From contig CANRAQ010000001.1 of assembly GCA_947628725.1 (NCBI GenBank), positions 1 through 62,043 on the forward strand: a stretch of DNA of 62,043 bases, given 5' to 3'. Origin of the DNA: an uncultured Bacilli bacterium (GTDB lineage: Bacteria; Bacillota_I; Bacilli_A; RF39; UBA660). A program made the translations under genes and the position numbers. Within the stretch, counting starts at the first letter, position 1; each line of letters starts with the position of its first letter. Positions 3,942-62,043 of this stretch are shown in pieces. The notes under the pieces were generated by a model. It had not been told where the DNA came from and searched no databases. It worked only from the letters and a program-made list of their open reading frames with translations.

Positions 3942-4280
3942 CTATTTCGTTTTTTCCTTTTTCAATATAGAAATTTCCTGTACTAAAGTTTTAATTTGAT
4001 CATTTTGTTTAGAAATTCTTATACTTAACAGTAATGAAACATAAAATAGAAAGAAGATAAATAGAATTAAAATCATATTTGATGCAGCTTCAAATCCGAA
4101 AAAATCAGATATATAGAAGATAAATTTAGGAAATAATATTCCAAATTCCATAATTAATGTAAAAAATATCCACAATATTCCAAATCTAATTGATAACTTT
4201 TTTCTTCTAATTCTTTTAATTATAAAATATATTTGTATAAATATTATTATAGTCAAAAACAATTGTAATCTGTTATTCAT
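3942..4280 (-). CDS. DUF2304-like small membrane protein
   Basis: 112 aa with 3-4 TM helices and a C-terminal charged helix. Overlaps by 4 nt the GT2 gene upstream of it, the usual genomic partner of DUF2304. Confidence 0.5.
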   Translation of the reverse strand: MNNRLQLFLTIIIFIQIYFIIKRIRRKKLSIRFGILWIFFTLIMEFGILFPKFIFYISDFFGFEAASNMILILFIFFLFYVSLLLSIRISKQNDQIKTLVQEISILKKEKTK

Positions 4281-4987
4281 AGTCTACCTCTTTCTAATTT
4301 AGTAAATATTATAGATAAACATACACTTATCATATAATATATGTTTTTATGTAAATATATAGATGAATGACCATATTTTCTTTCTCTCATATTTACAGGT
4401 ATTTCATCAACTTTTAATCCGTTTAAAAGCAACACTACGACTGATTCAGGTTCAGGATATTCTTGTGGGTAATATTTTGAAAATATTTCTATTACTTTTC
4501 TATTCCCTGCTCTAAATCCACTAGTCGTATCATATATTTTTTTCTTAGTAGTAAATTTGATAATTGATGAAATTATTTTAATTCCTAATTGTCTAGATTT
4601 AGTTGAAGTAAAATTGCTTAATTTTTTTATAAATCTTGAACCAATAACAAAATCATTACCACTTTCTATACTTTTAATTAAATCTTCTATATAATTTTCA
4701 TCGTGTTGGCCATCACCATCAAATTGTATTGCTATATCATAATTATTTTCCAAAGCATATTTATAACCTGTTTGAACGGCACCACCGATACCTAAATTCT
4801 CAATTAAATTAATTACGTTAAATTTATTATCATTACATACTTTTAGTGTATTATCTGTGCTCCCATCATTTATCACGACATAGTCTATATTATATTTTGA
4901 TTTTTTTATAACCTTTTTTAAATTATCAACTGTGTTTTTTATATTTAATTCTTCATTATATGCTGGAATTATTACTAATACTTTCAT
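4277..4987 (-). CDS. Glycosyltransferase family 2 (polyprenyl-phosphate sugar synthase type)
   Basis: 236 aa with MKVLVIIPAYNEE, INDGSTDNT and QFDGDGQHD motifs typical of DPM1/CsbB/GtrB-like GT2 enzymes. Confidence 0.8.
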   Translation of the reverse strand: MKVLVIIPAYNEELNIKNTVDNLKKVIKKSKYNIDYVVINDGSTDNTLKVCNDNKFNVINLIENLGIGGAVQTGYKYALENNYDIAIQFDGDGQHDENYIEDLIKSIESGNDFVIGSRFIKKLSNFTSTKSRQLGIKIISSIIKFTTKKKIYDTTSGFRAGNRKVIEIFSKYYPQEYPEPESVVVLLLNGLKVDEIPVNMRERKYGHSSIYLHKNIYYMISVCLSIIFTKLERGRL

Positions 4988-4995
4988 AAATCCTC

Positions 4996-5481
4996 CTACT
5001 TCTTACTATCTATTTCTTTTTCAATCAACTTAATAAAGTTTTCAGTATTACTTTTATATTTTTTAGGTTTAAATTTCTTTGACTCTTTTATTACATCCCC
5101 AAGTTTATCAAAATCGTCTAATTTTAATATATAACCATTTTCACTAAAATTTTCAATTATTTGAAGTTGATGATCATTTGTGTGTTCTCCATACTTTTCT
5201 AAGCGTGCAGCAGCTATTACTTTTTTATTATTTTTTAGTCCCGCTATTATAGAACCAACACCGCCATGAGTTATCAATAAATCACATTTTTCAATTAATT
5301 CATCAAACTTATCCATAGGTATTAAATCGAAAATTTCCATATCATCAGATTTAAAATCTGCTGATGACCCTGCTTGTACTACGACTTTCTCTTTTATAAC
5401 TTTAAGATCTATTTGCTTTTGTACCGCTTCAAGTAATCTATAAAATTTTTTATCCTGAGTTCCAAGTGTTATCAAAATCAT
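4996..5481 (-). CDS. Alg13-like / PssE-Cps14G-like glycosyltransferase catalytic half (GT28 C-terminal domain)
   Basis: 161 aa. MILITLGTQ...LLITHGGVGSIIAGL...EHTNDHQLQI matches the Glyco_tran_28_C pattern. No Alg14/Cps14F-like partner ORF is seen next to it. Confidence 0.65.
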   Translation of the reverse strand: MILITLGTQDKKFYRLLEAVQKQIDLKVIKEKVVVQAGSSADFKSDDMEIFDLIPMDKFDELIEKCDLLITHGGVGSIIAGLKNNKKVIAAARLEKYGEHTNDHQLQIIENFSENGYILKLDDFDKLGDVIKESKKFKPKKYKSNTENFIKLIEKEIDSKK

Positions 5482-50921: not shown

Positions 50922-50950
50922 ACAAAAAATAGTGTCAATAGGCACTATTT
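50922..50950 (-). terminator. Rho-independent terminator after spoVAE
   Basis: Minus strand AAATAGTG-loop-CACTATTT followed by TTTTTGT. Overlaps the stop codon. Confidence 0.65.
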
Positions 50951-51299
50951 AATCTCTTGGTTTAAATATTAAAGATAATATAAATGAAAATACTATAGCA
51001 GCAACTATTCCTGATGAAGTTAAATCAAACATTCCCATAAATAACCCCATTACTCCAAAATTATTTACAGTGTCCATAGCGCCATGAATAAGTAAATGTC
51101 CAAATGAAGTTATTGGTACAAGTGCGCCTCCACCAGCCCAAAGTACAAATTTGTCATAAATATTAAATATATCTAAAAATGCACCTACTACTACAAATAT
51201 GGTAGTTATATGACCAGGAGTTAATTTTGTGTTATCTAGTATTAACTGTCCAATCAAGCATACTACCCCACAAAATATAAATGAATTTAAATATGTCAT
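50949..51299 (-). CDS. spoVAE: Stage V sporulation protein AE (SpoVAEB-type)
   Basis: 116 aa with 4 TM helices. Paralogous to the SpoVAC-type protein and third gene of the spoVAC-AD-AE arrangement. Confidence 0.8.
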   Translation of the reverse strand: MTYLNSFIFCGVVCLIGQLILDNTKLTPGHITTIFVVVGAFLDIFNIYDKFVLWAGGGALVPITSFGHLLIHGAMDTVNNFGVMGLFMGMFDLTSSGIVAAIVFSFILSLIFKPRD

Positions 51300-52285
51300 T
51301 TTACTACCTCCAAACTAATCGCATGTGCGATACTTGGTATCGTTAAATGTTGATTACACATAGTTGTGTTCATAAGTGCCCCTGTCGCTACTAATAGGAC
51401 TTTATTTAATTCTTTGTTTTTCATTTTATTTAATATATAAGAATATGTAACTAAAGGTAAACATGCTATACCACTACCTCCTGTATAAACTGGTTGTTTA
51501 TTAATATCAAAAATCATACATGCAGAATCATCATAATTTGTTAAATTTATCTTATATGCATCTTTCATATAATCCTTAAGTATATTTTTACCTACAATTC
51601 CTAAGTCACCTGTCAAAATTAAATCATAGTAATCTACAGTTCTTTTTGTATCTTTTAAATGTTGAAGTATTACTTGTGCAGCTGCAGGTGCCATTACTGC
51701 ACCCATATTATTAACATCTTTAATTCCCATATCACATACAGTTCCAAGTGTTGCTGACTCTACTTTTATATTTGATTTTTCATTAGATAAATAACAACTT
51801 GCACATCCAGTCGTAGTAAAAGTTGTATAACATTTTTTTGGTCCACCATACTCTACAGGATTTCTAAATTGTTTTTCTGCACCATTATTGTGACAAGATG
51901 ATGTAACTAATGCATTTTTTATTTGATTTGCATTTATCATATTACTTGCTAATAATAATCCCAAACAACTAGAAGAACAAGCACTATATATACCTATATA
52001 TGGAATTTTCATTTTTGCTGATGCATAGCTTGTAGCAACTATTTGATTTAGTAAATCACTTCCTATATGAACATTAATATCTGTACTTTTCTTACCCAAT
52101 TTCTTAAGTAATATTAGAGTACTATCTTGTATTGCTCTAGTTTCTGCCTGCTCCCATGTTTTTTCTCCAAAATAAAAATCTTTGTATTTTTTATCAAAAT
52201 ATTTAGATAATGGTCCATTTGCTTCATATGGTCCTACTACTGTACTAGTATCATTTATATATACATTATCATATTTAAAAGTCAT
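51296..52285 (-). CDS. spoVAD: Stage V sporulation protein AD
   Basis: 329 aa with thiolase/ketoacyl-synthase-like fold features, located between spoVAC and spoVAE. Confidence 0.85.
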   Translation of the reverse strand: MTFKYDNVYINDTSTVVGPYEANGPLSKYFDKKYKDFYFGEKTWEQAETRAIQDSTLILLKKLGKKSTDINVHIGSDLLNQIVATSYASAKMKIPYIGIYSACSSSCLGLLLASNMINANQIKNALVTSSCHNNGAEKQFRNPVEYGGPKKCYTTFTTTGCASCYLSNEKSNIKVESATLGTVCDMGIKDVNNMGAVMAPAAAQVILQHLKDTKRTVDYYDLILTGDLGIVGKNILKDYMKDAYKINLTNYDDSACMIFDINKQPVYTGGSGIACLPLVTYSYILNKMKNKELNKVLLVATGALMNTTMCNQHLTIPSIAHAISLEVVK

Positions 52286-52286
52286 A

Positions 52287-52727
52287 TTAGCCTCCCATTA
52301 TTATTATCCTTAAAATTCCAAATATATATGCACTAACTACTCCAAATATAATAACTGATCCTGCAAGTTTAAACATATTCATACCAATACCAGTAACTAG
52401 ACCTTCTTTTCTATATTCTAGTGCTGCACTCATCATTGCATGTGCAAATCCTGTTATAGGAACTATTAAACCACATCTTGCAAAGTTAACCCATTTGTCA
52501 AAGAAGCCCAATCCAGTTAGAAAGCATCCTAAAAATACTAAAGTTATAATCATAAATACACTTGCATCTTTACTACTTAAATCAAATACATAAGAATAAA
52601 ATTGAACTAATGCATTACCTATTACACCCATTATTCCTCCGATAACAAAAGCTATAATAGCATTTTTTAATATATTTTCAGAAGGTGTATTCTTTTTTAC
52701 TATCTTATTATAAGCAGCTTTTTCCAT
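52287..52727 (-). CDS. spoVAC: Stage V sporulation protein AC
   Basis: ORF track 52287..52778. Start at MEKAAYNKIV follows GGGAGG. About 146 aa with 4 TM helices. Confidence 0.8.
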   Translation of the reverse strand: MEKAAYNKIVKKNTPSENILKNAIIAFVIGGIMGVIGNALVQFYSYVFDLSSKDASVFMIITLVFLGCFLTGLGFFDKWVNFARCGLIVPITGFAHAMMSAALEYRKEGLVTGIGMNMFKLAGSVIIFGVVSAYIFGILRIIIMGG

Positions 52728-52770
52728 AATAAAAATCCTCCCAAATATATTTTGGCAGGATTTTATCTTT

Positions 52771-53121
52771 TTATTCACATGCTTTTGATTGATATGTATA
52801 AGTATATTTATCTGACTCAGATGTTATTAAAACTGAACCAGTCATTTCTGTTTTGTCTTTAGGATCTTTTACTTCACTTTCTTCAATATATCCTTTTTCA
52901 ATTAAAGTAGATATATTTACACATTCTTCATTACTGTCCATTCCTTCTGATATATAATAAATTTTTGCTGCTCTTTCAAGTGATTCTTTTTGAGTATCTG
53001 ACAAATTTTCTCTAGAAGTTGAAAGAATATTACCTGTAGCAAAAAGTGTTATTGTTGCTAAAATTGCTAAAATTGCTATAACGGCAAGTAATTCTACTAA
53101 TGTAAAGCCTTTCTTATCCAT
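52771..53121 (-). CDS. Prepilin-type N-terminal cleavage/methylation domain protein (pseudopilin/ComGC-like)
   Basis: 116 aa. MDKKGFTLVELLAVIAILAIL is a class III signal peptide with a G/FTLVE cleavage motif. Confidence 0.75.
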   Translation of the reverse strand: MDKKGFTLVELLAVIAILAILATITLFATGNILSTSRENLSDTQKESLERAAKIYYISEGMDSNEECVNISTLIEKGYIEESEVKDPKDKTEMTGSVLITSESDKYTYTYQSKACE

Positions 53122-53352: not shown

Positions 53353-53441
53353 ACTTATTTTAAATTTTTTATTGTAAATGTTATAAGTTGAAAAATTAGA
53401 TTATAAAAACTATCCTCTATATTTTTGAGAATAGTTTTTAT
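53353..53441. repeat. Left copy of a direct repeat: a collapsed version of the 58382..58866 cassette (promoter-like segment plus terminator hairpin, no gene between)
   Basis: 53353..53389 matches 58382..58417 at 36 positions, with one extra T in the left copy. 53393..53441 matches 58825..58866, including the hairpin AAAACTATCCTC...GAGAATAGTTTT. Confidence 0.8.
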
Positions 53442-53467
53442 CTTTTTCTAAATACATATTTTACAAT

Positions 53468-54484
53468 TTATTCATTTTCTAATATCCATTCTTGTAAATA
53501 TTTTATTTCAGTATGACAATAAGAACAGGCCTCACTTGTTGCATCAATAGAAGCTCCACAATTATGACATTTAATTATATTAACTCCATCTTTTAACTCC
53601 AACTTTTCGTTTGAATTTTTTCTTAATAAGTATTCTTCTTTAGTAAACTTTGATTTTATTTTTCCCATATTATAATAAACTATTCTAACTTCCGCTAATA
53701 CTTTTATATATTGTATGCCGTCTTTAGTAAAATCACTAAATTTTATATAGTCTATCACATCAAAATCTATAATATTCTTTTTAGAATAATAGTATTTTCT
53801 TACTTCATAATTTAAATTATTAAAAAAACTTTTTTTATCTATTTTTGTTCTATTCCAAAAATCAATCTGCTTTTGATTTTCCTTATCTTTATATATTTTT
53901 ATAGGCCCCAATATTACATAAGCATCCAAAATATAGAAAAAATAATATAGTATCATAGATAAAATTAAACCATAAATAAAAATTTTACAAATATCTACAC
54001 TATTAAATGTTCTCGATGTAGTTTTAATAAAAATAAAACATAAAATTGTACTTACAATTAAATCAATAATTCCTGTAATAATTCTATATGATTTATTTCT
54101 TAATACTCTATCATAATGATATTTACTCCCTAAATCTTTATCTACATAATCAATATTATAATATGTTCTACAATAGGGACATCCATCAACAAAATTTTTT
54201 AGTTCTGACTTCATACCACAGTTAGGACATGTGTATTCTTTATTTTCCATTTCATTTGAAATAAATGTATACTCTATTCTTGAATCAAATTCTGTTTCTT
54301 TGTGTATCAATTTTTTATCAATATAATAATCTTTTTCAAATCTTATCCCAGATATTATATCATCATTTATTGAATCATCAGTATTTCGTTCATATACTTT
54401 ATTTCCAACAAAATATTTTGTCCTTATGTTTATTCCATAATCTTTTAATTTTTTCTTATTAAAATTATCTGATATCAAAGGCAT
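53468..54484 (-). CDS. Membrane protein with N- and C-terminal zinc ribbons (unknown function)
   Basis: 338 aa. CPNCGMKSELKNFVDGCPYC, two TM helices, then a soluble domain ending in CHNCGASIDATSEACSYCHTEI..W. The C-terminal architecture parallels the 43928..44674 product. Confidence 0.55.
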   Translation of the reverse strand: MPLISDNFNKKKLKDYGINIRTKYFVGNKVYERNTDDSINDDIISGIRFEKDYYIDKKLIHKETEFDSRIEYTFISNEMENKEYTCPNCGMKSELKNFVDGCPYCRTYYNIDYVDKDLGSKYHYDRVLRNKSYRIITGIIDLIVSTILCFIFIKTTSRTFNSVDICKIFIYGLILSMILYYFFYILDAYVILGPIKIYKDKENQKQIDFWNRTKIDKKSFFNNLNYEVRKYYYSKKNIIDFDVIDYIKFSDFTKDGIQYIKVLAEVRIVYYNMGKIKSKFTKEEYLLRKNSNEKLELKDGVNIIKCHNCGASIDATSEACSYCHTEIKYLQEWILENE

Positions 54485-54492
54485 ATTTACTC

Positions 54493-54864
54493 CTATCTAT
54501 TATTGTTATTATTGTTGTTGTTATTGTTATTATTGTTATTATTTGATGATGAACCACCACTATATCCACTACTACTTGATGGAACATAATGAGGTATTAT
54601 TTTAAATGAATCATTAGTCACTTTTACCCCATCAATACTACCATCTATACATTTTGTCATTATTACTTCTGGTTGTATTTTTGGTTCAACATTAGCATTA
54701 AGAGTCAAACTGTTATCATTACCAATTATAATAGCTTTTGGATATGTTGCTAAATAGTTATAAATTTTATCTAATTCTTCTTTTGATAAATCATAATGTA
54801 TTGTCAAGTCAACACATCTTTTATATCTTATTAATTCTTCATAAGTTTCTGGTTCTTTATTCAT
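54493..54864 (-). CDS. Small soluble protein with a Ser/Gly-rich, 15-residue poly-Asn C-terminal tail (unknown function)
   Basis: 123 aa. ATGA 4-nt overlap with the radical SAM gene stop. The tail is ...SSSSGYSGGSSS(N)15R. Confidence 0.55.
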   Translation of the reverse strand: MNKEPETYEELIRYKRCVDLTIHYDLSKEELDKIYNYLATYPKAIIIGNDNSLTLNANVEPKIQPEVIMTKCIDGSIDGVKVTNDSFKIIPHYVPSSSSGYSGGSSSNNNNNNNNNNNNNNNR

Positions 54865-56600
54865 TTTTTCAACTCCTTATCTAAATAATAAAATTCAATA
54901 TTTTGAAATGGCAAATTAATTGCTTGAATATGATAATAAGCATTATTCTTTTGTTTAGTATAGTGATAATCTCTAAGTGCGGATGTAGTAAAAAATATAT
55001 TATTTGGTTTATCAAAAGAATATTCACTTTTATAATTATCTATCATGTTTTTGATATTATAAACATAATATTCATCATCTTGTTTACCATTATCTAACAC
55101 ACCTTTATATATTTGATGAGTAGCAATATGTCTTTGTTTTGTCCTATTTTCATCACCATAAGTTACCAAGTCCCCACTTAGTAACATAATATATAGTGAA
55201 TTATTTTCTGGGTAATCACACATTTCATTAATCATATTTTTTTTCATCCATATTTCAATTTTACTGTTTGGTGTTATATATATAATATCTCTAGATTTTT
55301 TTATAATTTGAGAACCTAAATGATATTCTTGATTATCAATTTTTAATATAAAACTATCATTATCGTATATATATTTAAGATTTTTATCCTGTTTAATAAG
55401 TTCCTCTAAAGTTGAATAATCAGTTTGTTTTCTACTTGGAATATATTTATCTTTATCTTCTAAACGCATTTTTTTAACATACTCATATACAAATTCATCA
55501 TTAAACTCATCTTTTAAAAAATTTCTATCTTTATACATAACTTGCTGTAATTGACAAGTGTAACTCTTATTTGAGTTATAATTGTTTTTTACAAACGGAC
55601 AACCAGTCTTACATAAGTATAAATAACCACATTTTGTACATTCTTCATTTAATGGTTGTTTATTATGATTAATAAATATTTTAGTTTTTGCTGTATTTAA
55701 TATTTCTTCAACTGAATTTTTATATATATTCCCATAATAGTAATTTGGATTTTTCTGTCCCCTAACACATGAATATATATCACCATTTTTTTCAAGTAAG
55801 AAAAATTTTTCACCGCAATTATAACAATTTGTACAATATTCAGGTCCAAATTCATCAAACCATGGTCCGTTAACACCATAATCTAAATCAGTTCCATCGA
55901 ATTCTTTATGCATTCTGTTATAAAACTCAATTTGTTCTTTTTCTGTAATATGATGCAAAATCCCATTTGAATTATAATCAAAACCAATCATAAAATTAAA
56001 GTCATTCATATCAAGACAAGTATTTTTATGTAAAAATTTGATATCTTCTATAATTTCATCGATATAATTATAATGTTCTTTAAAAATCGTAGCTGATACT
56101 TTCTTTTTGTTGGGTATATCTTTTAATAGCGCAATATTATCAAGTATTTTTTTTAAAGTTTTTTGATTCCCTTTAGTGATTCTATACTCATCATGCAATG
56201 ATAGTGGTAGATCTAAACTTCCAGATATAGAAACATTAAATTCCTTTATGGTATCAATGTGTTTTTCTAAATTATACATATTAGTTTTAATGTGTGGATT
56301 ACCTATTTTAAAGCCTCCATCACAAATTATTTTTTTGTTATCGTTATAATAATTACTTATAAATTTTATTAAATCATAAAAATCATTTTTAGATAATGTT
56401 GTAACTTCACCTCCGTGAAGAGAAATATTAAATGGAATAACATTATTATCTTTAAACTTTTTTATAGCATATTCCAAAGTTTCTAATGGTTTATATTTTG
56501 TTCCATCATCAACGGTATTGTCCTCTAAATAACAATATTTGCAGCACATATTACATGCCATTGTAGGAACATATAATAAATGTATATACTTGTAATTCAT
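54861..56600 (-). CDS. Radical SAM enzyme with a SPASM domain and a ~240-aa C-terminal extension
   Basis: 579 aa. CNMCCKYC provides CxxxCxxC, and SLHGGEV is the GGE motif. SPASM pattern: CGEKFFLLEKNGDIYSC (C-x11-G-x4-C), then CTKCGYLYLCKTGC (C-x2-C-x5-C-x3-C) and a later Cys. Residues ~340-579 have no motif I recognise. Confidence 0.8.
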   Translation of the reverse strand: MNYKYIHLLYVPTMACNMCCKYCYLEDNTVDDGTKYKPLETLEYAIKKFKDNNVIPFNISLHGGEVTTLSKNDFYDLIKFISNYYNDNKKIICDGGFKIGNPHIKTNMYNLEKHIDTIKEFNVSISGSLDLPLSLHDEYRITKGNQKTLKKILDNIALLKDIPNKKKVSATIFKEHYNYIDEIIEDIKFLHKNTCLDMNDFNFMIGFDYNSNGILHHITEKEQIEFYNRMHKEFDGTDLDYGVNGPWFDEFGPEYCTNCYNCGEKFFLLEKNGDIYSCVRGQKNPNYYYGNIYKNSVEEILNTAKTKIFINHNKQPLNEECTKCGYLYLCKTGCPFVKNNYNSNKSYTCQLQQVMYKDRNFLKDEFNDEFVYEYVKKMRLEDKDKYIPSRKQTDYSTLEELIKQDKNLKYIYDNDSFILKIDNQEYHLGSQIIKKSRDIIYITPNSKIEIWMKKNMINEMCDYPENNSLYIMLLSGDLVTYGDENRTKQRHIATHQIYKGVLDNGKQDDEYYVYNIKNMIDNYKSEYSFDKPNNIFFTTSALRDYHYTKQKNNAYYHIQAINLPFQNIEFYYLDKELKK

Positions 56601-56612
56601 AAAAATCCCCCA

Positions 56613-58310
56613 TTAATTATAGTAATTTGGATAACCATCATCATAAAAATTATATTCATATGTATTAACGCTTGTTGGACTATCTTTAAATGCCCTTTCA
56701 TTTACATAAGTACTTGAAGGTATTGTTATATCATATAAATTTGAGCATTCTCTAAATGCTGATGAACCTATTTCTCTTAATTTACTATTTTCACTAATTG
56801 AAACTTCTGTTAAAGAAGAATCACCATAAAAAGCGTGTCCACCAATTCTTGTAACATTATCTGGAATTGTAATACTTGTCAAGGATGTACAATATTTAAA
56901 ACTATCTCCTCCAATTTCTGTAATGTTATTAGATAATTTTATATATTCTAGTGATTTGGCTCCATAAAATGTTTCTCCACCCATATATGTCAATGTATCT
57001 GGCAAAACAATCTTTTTTATAGATTTGGCATTATAAAATGCACCACCACCGAGATATTCTAATTTATCTGGTATATTTACATTTTTTAGTTTATAACAAT
57101 TTTTAAATGCTTGACCTCTTATTTCAATAATTGAATTAGGCAAACTTACACTTTCTAAAAATGGCATATTTGAAAATGTATTACCCCTTAAACTAACTAC
57201 TTTTTTATTATTATAAGTTTCAGGAATAGTAGCTGTCTTAAAGTCAGTTAATCCAAAAATATAATATCTTACAGCATAACCATTACCATATTTTTCATAC
57301 AAAATTCTAGGTGATGAAAAAATAATTAATGGCAAAATAATAGCGACTAATAGGCTTATTATAAAAGGTACCTTTGAATTATCAGTAACAAATGTGTTTT
57401 TTACATTCATAACGATATTTGAAACTTTTTCACCAGGTCGTGCTGTTACTTCCTTTTTCAAGTATTTCATTAAATTATATTTTCTTGTAATTTTAAAGAA
57501 AATTAATAATATAACTATACCAAATATATATGTATATATTGGAAAGTGAAAAAATATTAATGTTATAAATACAAAAACAAGAATCGAAAAGATAATATTT
57601 AAAATTTTCTTCCTTTTAATAATATCACTTGGAATTAATTTAGAGGATTTATCTATACCAGCTTTTATTAATTCTCTATTAATAAACTCTTCTAACATTT
57701 TATTTTCTGTCAATCTATACATTTTATCAAAATTTGATGGTAACACTGAAACTCTTGGTGGATTTTCAATTACTGAATCTAAATTTTCACTTACAACTAC
57801 ATTATTTCCATCGAATGGTTCACCACAATTTGAACAAAATTTATCTGTAATTTTTAATACTGCATTGCATTTAGCGCATTTTAATTCTATACCTTTAACC
57901 TGATTTTGTGGTGATACTGTTTTATAATTTGAGTTTGAACTTATATATTGATCTTCTTCAATAACTGTTTTTACTTGAGTTATAAGTGAACATATAGGAA
58001 CAATTATAAATGTTCCAATAAAAACTGATATAAAATCAAACATTGCTATATATGGAGTTATAAAAAAATCAAAAATCAACAAAATTCCAGCTCTTATAGA
58101 AAATAATATCCAAAATGTTTTTTTACTATTTTCCTTTGAAAAAATTTCAGATAATGGTTTTAAAACAAAAATTGACATATGTATAGAAACAAAAGCTTCC
58201 ACTCCTAATGCAACAATAATAGATAAGGTATTACTTCCATTACTTGCATAAATTGTATTTGGCATCAATAACAAAAGAATTATCAACAATATTTTATATT
58301 TATTTTTCAT
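56613..58310 (-). CDS. Multi-pass membrane protein with an internal zinc ribbon and a C-terminal BspA-type leucine-rich-repeat domain
   Basis: 565 aa with a signal/TM region. CAKCNAVLKITDKFCSNCGE, more TM helices, then about 7 repeats of the P..(I/V)..IG..AF..C..L..I.IP type. Confidence 0.6.
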   Translation of the reverse strand: MKNKYKILLIILLLLMPNTIYASNGSNTLSIIVALGVEAFVSIHMSIFVLKPLSEIFSKENSKKTFWILFSIRAGILLIFDFFITPYIAMFDFISVFIGTFIIVPICSLITQVKTVIEEDQYISSNSNYKTVSPQNQVKGIELKCAKCNAVLKITDKFCSNCGEPFDGNNVVVSENLDSVIENPPRVSVLPSNFDKMYRLTENKMLEEFINRELIKAGIDKSSKLIPSDIIKRKKILNIIFSILVFVFITLIFFHFPIYTYIFGIVILLIFFKITRKYNLMKYLKKEVTARPGEKVSNIVMNVKNTFVTDNSKVPFIISLLVAIILPLIIFSSPRILYEKYGNGYAVRYYIFGLTDFKTATIPETYNNKKVVSLRGNTFSNMPFLESVSLPNSIIEIRGQAFKNCYKLKNVNIPDKLEYLGGGAFYNAKSIKKIVLPDTLTYMGGETFYGAKSLEYIKLSNNITEIGGDSFKYCTSLTSITIPDNVTRIGGHAFYGDSSLTEVSISENSKLREIGSSAFRECSNLYDITIPSSTYVNERAFKDSPTSVNTYEYNFYDDGYPNYYN

Positions 58311-58381
58311 ATACAGACTGCACCTCTATTCTTAAATAAATTATAACATAAAATTCGACAATTTTTAATATTTATATTTTA

Positions 58382-58417
58382 ACTTATTTTAAATTTTTAT
58401 TGTAAATGTTATAAGTT
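58382..58417. repeat. Right copy, first segment, of the direct repeat seen at 53353..53389 (promoter-like)
   Basis: acttattttaaatttttattgtaaatgttataagtt. On the plus strand it contains TTGTAA followed 17-18 nt later by TATATT, upstream of the 58477 gene. Confidence 0.8.
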
Positions 58418-58476
58418 AAATTTTATATTGTGCATAAATTATATATAGAATAAAATTTATTTGAAAGAAGGAGTTT

Positions 58477-58833
58477 ATGGAAAATATATCATTAGGTCAA
58501 ATTGCAACTATAATTACATTTGCAAGTATTTTTATTGGCGCTATAACTACTTTAATTGCTTTTTCAAAATCGTTCATTTCTAAAGTGTTGAATCCAATCA
58601 ATCAGAAAATAGATAGATTAGAAAAAGTATCTATGAAAAGTCGTAACAACATAGAACTTGAATTAATTAAAATTATTCTAGTAAACTTTATTAACGATAT
58701 TGAGCAAGGTACTGATAAAACTCAAATTCAGAAAAAAAATATATATGAATTATACGATAGATATAAAACTTTAGGTGGCAATTCTTATGTTCATGATCGT
58801 TGGGAAAAACTTATTAAAGAAGGTAAATTATAA
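58477..58833 (+). CDS. Small protein with an N-terminal TM helix (unknown function)
   Basis: 118 aa. GGAG RBS (gaaggagtttATG) and a terminator immediately downstream. Confidence 0.55.
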   Translation: MENISLGQIATIITFASIFIGAITTLIAFSKSFISKVLNPINQKIDRLEKVSMKSRNNIELELIKIILVNFINDIEQGTDKTQIQKKNIYELYDRYKTLGGNSYVHDRWEKLIKEGKL

Positions 58834-58873
58834 AAAACTATCCTCGATTTTGAGAATAGTTTTTATTTTTTTA
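58832..58873. terminator. Bidirectional terminator hairpin (right copy of the repeat's second segment)
   Basis: AAAACTATCCTC-GATTTT-GAGAATAGTTTT followed by a T-run on the plus strand. It lies between convergent genes. Confidence 0.65.
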
Positions 58874-59453
58874 TATTTTGATTTTCATTATTTTTATACT
58901 CTTCCCTGATACTAGATAATATCTCGTCTAGTTGTTCTGTAGTAATAGTTCCACCATTTTTTGATATTGTACTAATTTGCTCATCTGATAAATATTCAAT
59001 TAATGGTCTTCCCTCATAAAAGTGTACATATTTTGAACAAAAAGGTTGTACATGTTCAGTAGTATATTCATGTAAATTGTAATAAGCAACAAAATCATCA
59101 TGATATTCATAATATATTGGACTAGTATCATATGAATAAAGTATATATAAGTTTTTTTCACCCTTTACATTTTCATTTTCTATGACAGTAAGTTCATATA
59201 AATTAAAAGTTTTAGAATTAATGATACTTTGTTTTTGTTTCGTTAAATCGGCTATTTCTCTTTCTAAACTATCACGTTTTTCAACATATTCTGCTAAATA
59301 ATCATCAATAGTTTTTGATTGTGACTTATCATTATTTTTAAATAATGACTCAATTTTATATGAACATTTACCTAATCCAAATCCCGTAAAAAATATAGTA
59401 ATACCTACTCCACCAGCAGCAAGCCTTTTCACTAATTTTTCATTTACTTTCAT
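58863..59453 (-). CDS. Membrane-anchored hypothetical protein
   Basis: 196 aa. N-terminal TM helix (AAGGVGITIFFTGFGLG) and a coiled-coil-like segment. No motif recognised. Confidence 0.5.
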   Translation of the reverse strand: MKVNEKLVKRLAAGGVGITIFFTGFGLGKCSYKIESLFKNNDKSQSKTIDDYLAEYVEKRDSLEREIADLTKQKQSIINSKTFNLYELTVIENENVKGEKNLYILYSYDTSPIYYEYHDDFVAYYNLHEYTTEHVQPFCSKYVHFYEGRPLIEYLSDEQISTISKNGGTITTEQLDEILSSIREEYKNNENQNIKK

Positions 59454-60611: not shown

Positions 60612-62043
60612 TTATTTTCTATAATAATTTCTCATTCTAAGTTCTGCAATATGTTCTAATCTACTACTATCCCCTTTTGCCCATAGACTATCAAATGTAG
60701 CCAAAGATTCATCTCCTAGTTTTTCTACAAAATTTCTTACCTTTTCTAAATTATCTTCATCTACATATGAAAGTGATACTATCGTTGCATATTTTTCTCC
60801 TATATCCAAATTGAATGCTTGTTCATTATAATTACCATTTATTACATCTTCTAGAGTTATTACTTTCTTTTTTGTAAATGCTACAAACTCTGTTGTTAAT
60901 TCTTCTCCTATTAATGACCTTAACATTTTTGGATTACCTGTTTGATATAATATCTTGGATGCCATCTCCCACTTTCTTGGATCTGCATTTGGTGTTTGTC
61001 CATTATATTTTGTTCTTAATCCCTTATCTCTTTTAAAACTTATAAATGCATATATCGCAGGATGTATTTTCATTCCTACTTTGCTTTCTTCTACATCTAA
61101 TTTTTCATATTCACTTTCTGGAGTGATTGCCCATTTTAACCAATCTTCTGCTGTCGTTTTTATATACACATGGGCAAGTCTATTAAATAATGGCTCTGCT
61201 AATTCATTTGCTGAAATTGAATCTTCTACTTCATTTCCTGCTGCCACTATTCTTGCATTTTCTGGTAATTTCCACTTACCATTTACTTCTTTATCTAATA
61301 TTAAATTGAATGCTAACTTTTGTATGGCTGGTAATGCATTCGCCAATTCATCTAAAAATAATATGTGTATCTTATCAGGCTCACTCTTACATTTCTCCTC
61401 TAAGTTTTCAAGCCATGATGGCTTTATATCCAGCATATGTCCTTCTTCTACTATTACATCTTGATATTCAATAAATTCTTTTTCTTCTTCATTTCCTAAT
61501 TCATTTATTATTTTCTTTTTAACCGGTACTTCTACTCGTTTATATGTTGGTTGTATATATACACTTTTACCCAATAATGATTCTATCGATGCATTTGCTA
61601 AATATATTATTTCACAATCTTTATCTAATTGTTTTACTCTCGCACTTTTTCCTTCGCTTGATCTTCCATGTAGATATGGTGTTATACCACTTTGTATGCA
61701 AGATTTCATTATATCTTCTTCACTTACATTTTCATAATTAAAATTATATGGATTAATATTTAAATTTTTATTATAGTTTTCGTATGTATTTTCTACACTT
61801 TTAACTTTACTTAAATCTAAAGTTTGAGTTATTGCTGGTAAATAATATTTTTTTAAATAGTTATACATATCTGAAAATAGAAAGTCTAATATGTCTGAAT
61901 CCACATTATTAAATTGTATTCCGCTCATACCAATTTTTTCTGTAAAACATATATCTTTTTCTTCATTTACTATCCAAGTTATTGGATTTACTTCAAGCCA
62001 AACATAATTTCCAACATCTCGTGTATTTCTTCCATTTGATAAA
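60612..62043 (-). CDS. MoxR/AAA_5-like AAA+ ATPase, N-terminally incomplete (ORF open to the window edge)
   Basis: ORF track starts at Met 61928, but the same frame has no stop from 61929 to 62043 (LSNGRNTRDVGNYVWLEVNPITWIVNEEKDICFTEKIG-MSG...). Walker A-like GRSSEGKS, Walker B ILFLDELANA and EPLFNRLAHV (MoxR-like sensor region). Confidence 0.6.
   Translation of the reverse strand, partial: LSNGRNTRDVGNYVWLEVNPITWIVNEEKDICFTEKIGMSGIQFNNVDSDILDFLFSDMYNYLKKYYLPAITQTLDLSKVKSVENTYENYNKNLNINPYNFNYENVSEEDIMKSCIQSGITPYLHGRSSEGKSARVKQLDKDCEIIYLANASIESLLGKSVYIQPTYKRVEVPVKKKIINELGNEEEKEFIEYQDVIVEEGHMLDIKPSWLENLEEKCKSEPDKIHILFLDELANALPAIQKLAFNLILDKEVNGKWKLPENARIVAAGNEVEDSISANELAEPLFNRLAHVYIKTTAEDWLKWAITPESEYEKLDVEESKVGMKIHPAIYAFISFKRDKGLRTKYNGQTPNADPRKWEMASKILYQTGNPKMLRSLIGEELTTEFVAFTKKKVITLEDVINGNYNEQAFNLDIGEKYATIVSLSYVDEDNLEKVRNFVEKLGDESLATFDSLWAKGDSSRLEHIAELRMRNYYRK

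Follow-up and report, generated by a model that had tools for sequence, protein, structure and literature searches.

The window analysed here, a 62,043-nt stretch of DNA from an uncultured Bacilli bacterium (contig CANRAQ010000001.1, about 24% GC), contains four open reading frames (ORFs) packed on the minus strand at positions 53468-58310, exactly where a first-pass annotation of this DNA had placed them. We call them A, B, C and D. Gene B (54861-56600) encodes a 579-aa radical SAM/SPASM enzyme and gene C (54493-54864) a 123-aa soluble protein with a tail of asparagines. They are flanked by gene A (56613-58310), which encodes a 565-aa membrane protein with a leucine-rich repeat (LRR) domain, and by gene D (53468-54484), which encodes a 338-aa protein with two zinc ribbons. 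We found that an enzyme of this type and an Asn-tailed protein form an invariant core shared by bacteria and phages, to which the cellular versions add some membrane protein. From comparative genomics we infer that B and C are paired as enzyme and substrate, and we consider it fairly probable that the two genes, as the operon's core, make up a two-part system for protein modification in which B modifies the Asn-tailed C.

Asn-tailed proteins accompany the enzyme

Protein C ends in SSSSGYSGGSSS-N15-R. The poly-Asn tract (residues 108-122) is encoded at 54499-54543 of the minus strand by mixed AAT and AAC codons, which are followed by one Arg codon and the stop. Both features attributed to this protein in the first-pass annotation, the (N)15R ending and translational coupling to the radical SAM gene, were recovered. 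The ORF has this ending, and the stop codon of gene B (54861-54863, minus strand) lies within an ATGA overlap with the start of gene C, an arrangement which is translational coupling. In 51 of 75 related loci, the two genes overlap by 4 or 8 nt. Alignment of 74 homologues defined a conserved N-terminal domain (EPETYEELIRxKRCxDLxxYY...IYxFL...IDG...IIPHY), which is followed by a Ser/Gly linker and then by the Asn tail. No relative of protein C was present in Pfam, NCBIfam or PDB. Matches of the C profile to maltose-binding protein (MBP) fusions made with pMAL vectors were rejected as a low-complexity artefact, as only the poly-Asn linker was aligned. Dozens of such MBP constructs were matched through the ...SSSNNNNNNNNNN... 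linker of these vectors, i.e. the natural tail of C resembles a widely used flexible linker.

The tail is a constant attribute of the proteins encoded beside the enzyme. All 74 C homologues of the gut clade (114-129 aa) have a Ser/Gly stretch (GGSSS), 10-17 Asn and almost always a final Arg. Divergent relatives were traced by searching with the C-terminal domain of the enzyme, and the small tailed proteins encoded after them look unrelated to C. For one of them, with a 45% identical domain and located on a contig of 57% GC, the next ORF (120 aa) ends in ...GTWT-N10-G; for another, with a 35% identical domain on a contig of 64% GC, an overlapping 160-aa ORF ends in ...GQS-N18-G. In a metagenome scan seeded with the high-GC clade, contigs of 27-66% GC had proteins adjoining the enzyme with 8-28 Asn (N8 to N28) and, after these, a Gly or an ending of the GNNGNNG type. 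One enzyme cluster from these tailed loci includes a sequence from a Rhodocyclaceae metagenome-assembled genome (MAG).

A census was made of the loci returned by the scans (at most 80 per scan, many of them closely related), where ORFs of high-GC contigs were called mechanically. In 160 of 169 loci with a complete enzyme ORF, an Asn run terminates an ORF located no more than 2 kb away. Of the nine tail-less loci, six are cut by a contig end and two more have short runs (..STGNNF and ..GNNNSKCSG). When the enzymes were clustered at 50% identity, all seven clusters had the tail; at 60%, 15 of 16 did. The tail is also confined to the immediate vicinity of the enzyme: among same-strand ORFs of 93 loci, it was found in 85 of 340 ORFs within 1.5 kb of the enzyme vs 0 of 710 further away. 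These 93-locus counts include related genomes and are not independent events, hence the argument rests on recurrence across clades. The length of the Asn run ranges from 4 to 28 and that of the tailed proteins from 84 to 370 aa. Immediately ahead of the run, most clades have Ser and several have Thr or Cys; Gly, Ala, Tyr, Phe and Arg are rare there.

Could the tails be compositional noise of AT-rich genomes, with their position inherited within one lineage? The low GC content of the window would fit such an explanation, Asn runs being common in genomes of this composition. However, gene C is the sole Asn-tailed ORF among the 66 ORFs (>=80 aa) of the window, the tail recurs in 15 of the 16 enzyme clades, and N14-N18 tails occur in contigs of 56-66% GC; these high-GC loci refute the explanation. 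Moreover, AAT and AAC codons are mixed within the runs whatever the GC content of the genome (22-66% GC), which indicates selection for asparagine and not for a DNA repeat. We regard noise as a scarcely credible source of the tails.

In some environmental clades (L120 2751-3233, L121 2188-2730 and L165), the run is preceded by a Cys/Gly-rich linker (...SAGCSGGGGCGGGCGGGFNS-N15..., ...SGCGSCGCSS-N11-G), which hints at thioether-type chemistry in these members. Tailed proteins of the Rhodocyclaceae type (L115 6802-7239, L117 6792-7247, L083 3103-3585 and L114 3387-4064) possess a hydrophobic stretch (..GGKLVMLGTAGLILTMPG..) about 25 residues before the run and, judging from this stretch, may be tail-anchored in the membrane. 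In L083, genes for a PIN-domain protein and a PhdYeFM antitoxin (4201-5408) adjoin the high-GC system, which suggests a mobile or island context for this locus.

Phages encode the same pair

Protein B matches the PHROG family phrog_1802 end to end (residues 11-572 vs profile positions 49-551 of 556, E 4.2e-39); judged by sequence, the window enzyme is in the same family as the phage phrog_1802 enzymes. The enzyme of Campylobacter phage CAM-P21 is a full-length relative (33% identity over 98% of the query). Its gene is placed between the tail fibre and tail sheath genes, and the tail fibre (PF12571, phrog_1162) ends in ...YAPSGSTNNNNY (tail ...SGSTNNNNY). Three neighbours of the CAM-P21 enzyme (128, 337 and 211 aa) were considered as counterparts of C, D and A and were rejected, as BLASTP detected no similarity; the 128-aa neighbour belongs to DUF1353 and its size match to C is coincidental. 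A homologue search from the Campylobacter protein yielded nothing beyond near-identical copies from C. coli.

Full-length relatives of the enzyme were found in 13 IMG/VR loci, one of which (L099) is the bacterial four-gene cluster. In all 12 phage-type loci, the genes follow the same order: an Asn-ending protein, a helical accessory protein (141-211 aa, phrog_10241) and the enzyme. The Asn-ending protein is either a tail fibre or an 84-108-aa protein encoded after a protein of 870-1000 aa. Endings with Asn runs include ...YSCNNNNN, ...GATNNNNY, ...TSSNNNNNNRG, ...TFSNNNNNNLAGNV and ...NNNGNNNNSCSGGW. Among further phage-like contigs, one has a contig-edge ORF ending in N14-G and another a collagen-like ORF ending in ...GYNNNNNGNNH. 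As the enzyme is combined with an Asn tail both in bacterial operons and in phages, their pairing crosses the boundary between cells and viruses. Should the enzyme indeed modify fibre tips, it would represent a new layer in phage host recognition, and Campylobacter prophages offer a culturable system in which this can be tested.

In three IMG/VR contigs of 94-258 kb (L109, L089 and L098), the tail is located on the separate 84-108-aa protein, and the preceding 870-1000-aa protein has no family match. The 1000-aa protein of L089 itself ends in ..HGNNNS. The exact L109 enzyme is present on a 263-kb contig as well.

A radical SAM/SPASM enzyme with a family-specific C-terminal domain

Protein B consists of a radical SAM core (residues 1-250; 55851-56600), a SPASM domain (residues 251-358; 55527-55850) and a helical linker with a beta-rich C-terminal domain (residues 359-579; 54864-55526), all encoded on the minus strand. 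The core carries C16xxxC20xxC23 and a GGE-like motif, H62-G63-G64-E65, and barrel alignment as well as the Pfam score (Radical_SAM PF04055, 40.7 bits vs a cut-off of 29.5) place it in the radical SAM superfamily; Fer4_12 also exceeded its Pfam cut-off. SPASM membership follows from the Cys pattern (C262-x10-G273-x4-C278, C321xxC324x5C330x3C334 and C349, plus C256) and from two scores above cut-off (PF13186, 33.2 vs 21.5; TIGR04085, 48.6 bits vs 27). In 35 relatives, down to 30% identity, C16xxxC20xxC23 and H62-G63-x-E65 are invariant, and so are the eight further cysteines (256, 262, 278, 321, 324, 330, 334 and 349). By their number and pattern, these eight are predicted to be sufficient to ligate two auxiliary [4Fe-4S] clusters. 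The motifs listed for this enzyme in the first-pass annotation, namely CxxxCxxC, GGE and SPASM cysteines for two auxiliary clusters, are thus borne out by profile scores and by invariant residues.

The AlphaFold2 (AF2) model of B has a pLDDT of 90.3. Its best Foldseek match is the anaerobic sulfatase-maturating enzyme anSME (4k36, E 3e-14), and further top matches are CteB, SuiB, ChlB and SkfB, with about 380 residues aligned; E values for anSME, CteB and SuiB range from 1e-11 to 3e-14. All five of these enzymes modify peptides or proteins. EpeE and viperins were among the weaker structural matches, while a direct search of PDB with the B sequence gave no match. None of the 23 NCBIfam radical SAM families matched by B, besides the generic SPASM family, came near its curated cut-off. 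The best ones were anSME (TIGR03942, 91.3 bits vs 349.45) and DynA (85 vs 450); examples of others far below their cut-offs are NF010308 for anaerobic sulfatase maturases (57.7 vs 484), PapB (NF047865, 63 vs 340), HxsB (58 vs 370) and GrrM (48 vs 310), and weak matches to mycofactocin and quinohemoprotein maturases were also seen (QhpD TIGR03906, 41 vs 453). These results support the view that B belongs with the radical SAM/SPASM enzymes that act on proteins or peptides, but lies outside every characterised family, as the first-pass annotation had proposed. Radical SAM/SPASM enzymes are a main source of new peptide and protein chemistry.

The C-terminal part, which had been described as uncharacterised, proved to be restricted to this enzyme family. 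Residues 355-579 were compared with 1.84 billion representative proteins and gave 102 matches, mostly fragments. Every match of about full length (588-616 aa) has the domain fused behind a radical SAM part; from this, it follows that the domain exists only in this enzyme family. Two motifs are at least 90% conserved in an alignment of 38 rows (YGDExRxKxxH and TTxxxRxxHYxKxxxNAxYHxxxxNLPF), and the strictly conserved residues are Y481-G482-x-E484-x-R486-x-K488-x-x-H491, T538-T539, R543, H546-Y547 and N553-A-x-Y556-H557...N562-L-P-F565. The AF2 model of the domain alone is beta-rich (pLDDT 91, pTM 0.82). Foldseek returned no significant match for it in PDB (best E 0.05, query-normalised TM-score <=0.30) or in BFVD (best E 0.02). 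A family-specific domain so rich in invariant residues is consistent with a dedicated role, either in docking or in catalysis.

One metagenomic protein of 477 aa (P0324) has an N-terminal BspA-type LRR segment joined to a partial radical SAM/SPASM/C-terminal domain. This direct junction could be a real fusion or an artefact of assembly or of a frameshift; in both cases, it repeats the adjacency of LRR protein and enzyme in a more divergent member.

Organisation and conservation of the four-gene operon

Genes A and B are separated by 12 nt, B and C overlap by the four letters of ATGA (-4 nt) and C and D are separated by 8 nt. Upstream of gene A, a promoter-like site with a TG-extended -10 element (TTAAAA, 17 nt, TG-TATAAT) is located at 58340-58368 of the minus strand, as called from its consensus match alone, and a GAGGTG ribosome-binding site precedes the ATG of gene A. 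Downstream of gene D, an intrinsic-terminator-like hairpin is present (53403-53441, minus strand), with a 15-bp stem followed by a U-rich stretch (-17.6 kcal/mol, z = -3.7). The spacing, the promoter-like site and the terminator are consistent with, and support, one predicted transcription unit. A weak terminator-like hairpin with a 6-bp stem also lies within gene A (57997-58016, minus strand); it is probably a chance match in AT-rich sequence.

When one genome per species was scanned, 221 stretches were found to encode a relative of the enzyme. Among the 80 loci retained from these, the enzymes are 68-90% identical, and the order A-B-C-D is kept in all 80 loci wherever the contig reaches; the few gaps are due to contig ends or to similarity too low for the search to register. 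All come from low-GC gut Bacilli, with genome labels that read Bacilli, Tenericutes or 'CAG' MAG. Genes flanking the operon in the window (spoVA, the pilin-like gene, GDPD and the ATPase gene) are absent from the flanks of these loci. Because the four-gene order is kept in 80 genomes while the flanking genes are not, chance can be excluded as its explanation. The cluster A-B-C-D was also detected in human-gut contigs of 42-49% GC, with B 62-68%, A 30-49% and D 40-49% identical. There, the enzyme is annotated as 'radical SAM protein [Waltera sp.]', and its cluster holds 8,618 member sequences from at least 1,000 contigs, i.e. this enzyme family is common in the human gut. The first-pass annotation had named co-occurrence of the four gene families as a check and its absence as a refutation; co-occurrence is confirmed by these 80 loci and by the gut contigs of higher GC content, and the predicted single operon is supported by them.

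Such conservation also bears on the idea that the operon serves in anti-phage defence or superinfection exclusion, with the enzyme acting on a phage or nucleotide substrate as viperins do; a defence or stress module had been among the earlier suggestions. The location of the Campylobacter prophage enzyme gene between tail fibre and tail sheath genes would suit this, since we take that position to be a cargo hot spot in P2-like phages. The toxin-antitoxin genes adjoining one environmental locus (PIN/PhdYeFM) and the presence of viperins among the weaker structural matches of B point in the same direction. However, none of seven proteins compared with PADLOC-DB 2.0, all four operon proteins included, had a match at E <= 0.01. 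The enzyme is also tied to a tail fibre and to phrog_10241 in several unrelated phage groups, and a cluster kept at 68-90% identity in at least 80 species is unlike the usual patchy distribution of defence systems. A defensive role thus seems very improbable.

As for the membrane-associated proteins, gene A is located directly upstream of the radical SAM gene in all gut-clade loci. Protein A has a C-terminal BspA-type LRR domain (LRR_5, E 6e-49). Its hydrophobic segments comprise several N-terminal transmembrane (TM) helices, then a zinc ribbon, then three more TM helices; given this order, the ribbon is probably cytoplasmic and the LRR domain extracellular. The ribbon and LRRs had been noted before, and both are real, but the spacing of the ribbon is C144xxC147-x11-C159xxC162, with x11 and not x10. 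Protein D was correctly described as having zinc ribbons at both ends and two TM helices. The N-terminal ribbon is formed by C86, C89, C102 and C105 (CPNC..CPYC) and the C-terminal one by C306, C309, C320 and C323 (CHNC..CSYC). Both are invariant among 34 homologues, in which 58 columns are invariant altogether, and the two hydrophobic helices form a TM hairpin (about 132-195), so that both soluble parts are predicted to face the cytoplasm. The D profile found no relative in PDB.

A and D are restricted to gut Firmicutes clades, i.e. low-GC Bacilli and Waltera-type Lachnospiraceae. Environmental clades have other partners. One type is a two-TM protein of 150-183 aa with the motif FPTNARKADKI..NK..KFDKV, encoded directly upstream of the enzyme and often overlapping it; the other is a protein of 240-290 aa with TM segments at both ends, which adjoins the tailed protein. 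Neither these TM families nor phage phrog_10241 showed any significant similarity to A, C or D by hhalign. A and D are thus clade-specific partners outside the invariant core. The earlier view that the membrane proteins are parts of the system holds in so far as they co-occur with it in gut Firmicutes, and does not extend to the core itself.

A model of Asn-tail modification

To account for the constant pairing of enzyme and tail, the following model is proposed. The C-terminal domain of the enzyme would dock the partner protein. A 5'-deoxyadenosyl radical would then abstract a hydrogen in the Asn run or at the preceding Ser, Thr or Cys, the auxiliary clusters would accept an electron, and the outcome would be an oxidative modification (a cross-link or a dehydrogenation) retained on the protein. 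An oxidative reaction is assumed because SPASM enzymes with two auxiliary clusters typically perform two-electron oxidations; such reactions, both cross-links and dehydrogenations, are known from anSME and from sactipeptide, ranthipeptide and streptide enzymes. The product is expected to stay on the protein because the phage partner is a structural fibre. In gut Firmicutes, the modified C might act at the cytoplasmic face of the membrane together with D and A, which is the speculative part of the model. In phages, the same type of enzyme would mature the C-terminal tip of the tail fibre.

The 123-aa protein had already been named among possible substrates in the first-pass annotation, and this proposal is strongly reinforced by a poly-Asn tail that travels with the enzyme across clades. 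The prediction is specific, as it names one enzyme, one small protein and one tail. In a broader form, which we put forward tentatively, C-terminal poly-Asn tracts would be reworked by a radical SAM/SPASM enzyme that is dedicated to this task and equipped with a novel docking domain. Phages would use the system to finish the receptor-binding tips of their fibres; gut and environmental bacteria would employ it in membrane-associated modules, with a surface LRR protein added in gut Firmicutes. The enzyme might, for example, cross-link, dehydrogenate or epimerise the tail iteratively, so that a floppy stretch acquires a defined structure. A poly-Asn tail would be an unprecedented class of substrate, and the system could prove categorically new if its chemistry is without precedent.

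Several observations weigh against the model. To our knowledge, no SPASM chemistry on a homopolymeric Asn substrate has been described, and the reaction given above is a guess. Between clades, hhalign detected no significant homology of the tailed proteins in their N-terminal domains, though the layout of these is similar. One complete locus (L119) has no tail, and in some phage fibres the run is down to two or three Asn (..STGNNF, ..SMGNNS, ..GNNNSKCSG). No protease or exporter is encoded in the operon or in its conserved neighbours. The membrane partners differ among clades, which makes the role of A and D the weakest part of the model. Finally, the Asn run might serve just as a recognition tag for a modification made at another residue.

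In this last case, the run would be a C-terminal handle of the follower type, to which the enzyme binds through its C-terminal domain, while modification takes place at a different site of the partner protein. A candidate site is the Ser, Thr or Cys before the run, which might be oxidised as anSME converts Ser or Cys into formylglycine. The occurrence at this position of Ser in most clades, and of Thr or Cys in several others, fits the idea, as do the closeness of anSME to B in both sequence and structure and the freedom of the run to vary between 4 and 28 residues, as would be expected of a handle. On the other hand, this position is taken by Gly, Ala, Tyr, Phe or Arg in a few clades, no other motif is common to all clades, and the anSME family score of B is far under the cut-off. 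We consider a mere tag plausible, yet less likely than the model above.

Another alternative assumes that the tailed protein is a scaffold or precursor, from the C-terminal Asn of which a small molecule or cofactor is released, as in the pyrroloquinoline quinone (PQQ), mycofactocin and pearlin-type pathways. It is established that small precursors are the substrates of PqqE and MftC and are modified at C-terminal residues, B has weak matches to mycofactocin and quinohemoprotein maturases, and many identical residues could yield many product units. However, no peptidase, ligase or tailoring enzyme is conserved beside the pair in any clade, and a tail placed on a structural tail fibre of a phage is hard to square with cofactor release. 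This makes a precursor role improbable, and modification of the tailed protein itself is the reading we prefer.

Flanking repeats and neighbouring genes

The operon is bracketed by direct repeats. A 34-nt repeat is present at 53359-53392 and again at 58387-58420 (91% identical; family D1), and a hairpin-containing repeat at 53405-53450 and 58833-58875 (about 90% identical; families D2 and D15). In the downstream copy (53359-53450), the 34-mer, which resembles an upstream element, and the hairpin stand together. In the upstream copy, the 34-mer and the terminator-like hairpin half are parted by a plus-strand gene at 58477-58833. These repeats had been taken as consistent with accessory status. 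They are real, but the cluster is very widely conserved in its lineage, and such a status finds partial support at most.

The gene at 58477-58833 sits exactly between the two repeat halves, a position that would fit insertion of the gene or splitting of the repeat. It encodes a 118-aa protein with one N-terminal TM helix and a match to the phage family phrog_13632 (E 1.5e-12). A 438-aa protein encoded at 60612-61928 of the minus strand matches the phage ATPase family phrog_1297 (E 5e-46) and, weakly, Sigma54_activat/AAA; this phage-like ATPase gene lies near the operon, yet it is absent from the flanks of related loci. Directly downstream of the operon, profile searches identified a ComGC/GspG-like prepilin gene (52771-53121) in a block at 50949-53121, all on the minus strand. 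Three ORFs in a run overlapped by it (163, 329 and 116 aa) we take, by eye, to be similar to spoVAC, spoVAD and spoVAE, and the ORF next after this run is presumably pyruvate phosphate dikinase-like, again recognised by eye. The 34-nt repeat precedes both the prepilin/spoVA-like block and the four-gene operon.

Comparison with known systems

The closest known enzyme is anSME (TIGR03942; PDB 4k36-4k39), to which residues 13-358 of B are matched best by sequence family as well as by structure. In both, a radical SAM core is joined to a SPASM domain; the two auxiliary clusters are fully ligated in anSME and predicted to be so in B. The substrate of anSME is a folded protein or peptide. Unlike anSME, B possesses an extra C-terminal domain of 220 residues and an Asn-tailed partner, and neither a sulfatase domain nor a partner with Cys/Ser-x-Pro-x-Arg was detected in the four operon proteins and five neighbours scanned.

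In gene arrangement, the pair resembles QhpD/QhpC, in which a SPASM enzyme modifies a protein subunit of about 110 aa from the same operon, with no short leader-core peptide involved. QhpD installs Cys-to-Asp/Glu thioethers, and its substrate is the Cys-containing subunit of an enzyme of the periplasm, whereas the window operon has no dehydrogenase and its tailed partner no conserved Cys pattern. MftC/MftA and PqqE/PqqA are similar in that the SPASM enzyme acts at or near the C-terminus of a small precursor encoded in linkage with it. Their precursors end in Val-Tyr or Glu..Tyr motifs, depend on a RiPP recognition element (RRE) chaperone (MftB, PqqD) and a peptidase, and yield cofactors; B is accompanied by neither an RRE chaperone nor a peptidase, and its scores are far below the cut-offs.

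Maturases of ranthipeptides/SCIFF and of the NxxC type (PapB, CteB, NxxcB) are SPASM enzymes that link Cys sulfur to Asp/Asn-type carbons. CteB is among the top structural matches of B, and a few tails have Cys directly before the Asn run. Most tails are, however, without Cys, and the partners are proteins of 84-370 aa and not Cys-rich peptides of about 45 aa. Radical SAM epimerases (the proteusin epimerase PoyD and the SPASM/twitch enzymes YydG and EpeE) act repeatedly along a peptide, and in polytheonamides many Asn residues are among the sites. Unlike B, PoyD has no SPASM domain and its substrates carry nitrile-hydratase-like leaders, and B has no sequence-level family match to these epimerases. 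With regard to curated maturase families of ribosomally synthesised and post-translationally modified peptides (RiPPs), B falls below all NCBIfam cut-offs (ranthipeptide/SCIFF, sactipeptide, darobactin/dynobactin, cyclophane/triceptide and streptide-type). No short precursor that is Cys-rich or has an aromatic motif is encoded beside B, and neither a leader peptidase nor an ABC transporter is encoded in the operon or among the conserved genes around it.

In open full-text literature (subscription journals not covered), we found no account of a radical SAM/SPASM enzyme paired with a poly-Asn tail or with a tail fibre; a 2010 paper on Campylobacter phages merely counts radical SAM genes. The one described family to which B does belong is phrog_1802, a phage 'radical SAM domain-containing protein', the entry for which has neither an assigned function nor a recorded link to Asn-tailed fibres. 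Understood broadly, the RiPP concept calls for a precursor gene that adjoins the gene of its maturase, with the modified region at one end of the precursor; enzyme and Asn-tailed protein show very strong adjacency and co-variation, and the latter may be such a precursor. New here, within a known enzyme superfamily, are the C-terminal domain, the proposed class of substrate and the biological setting.

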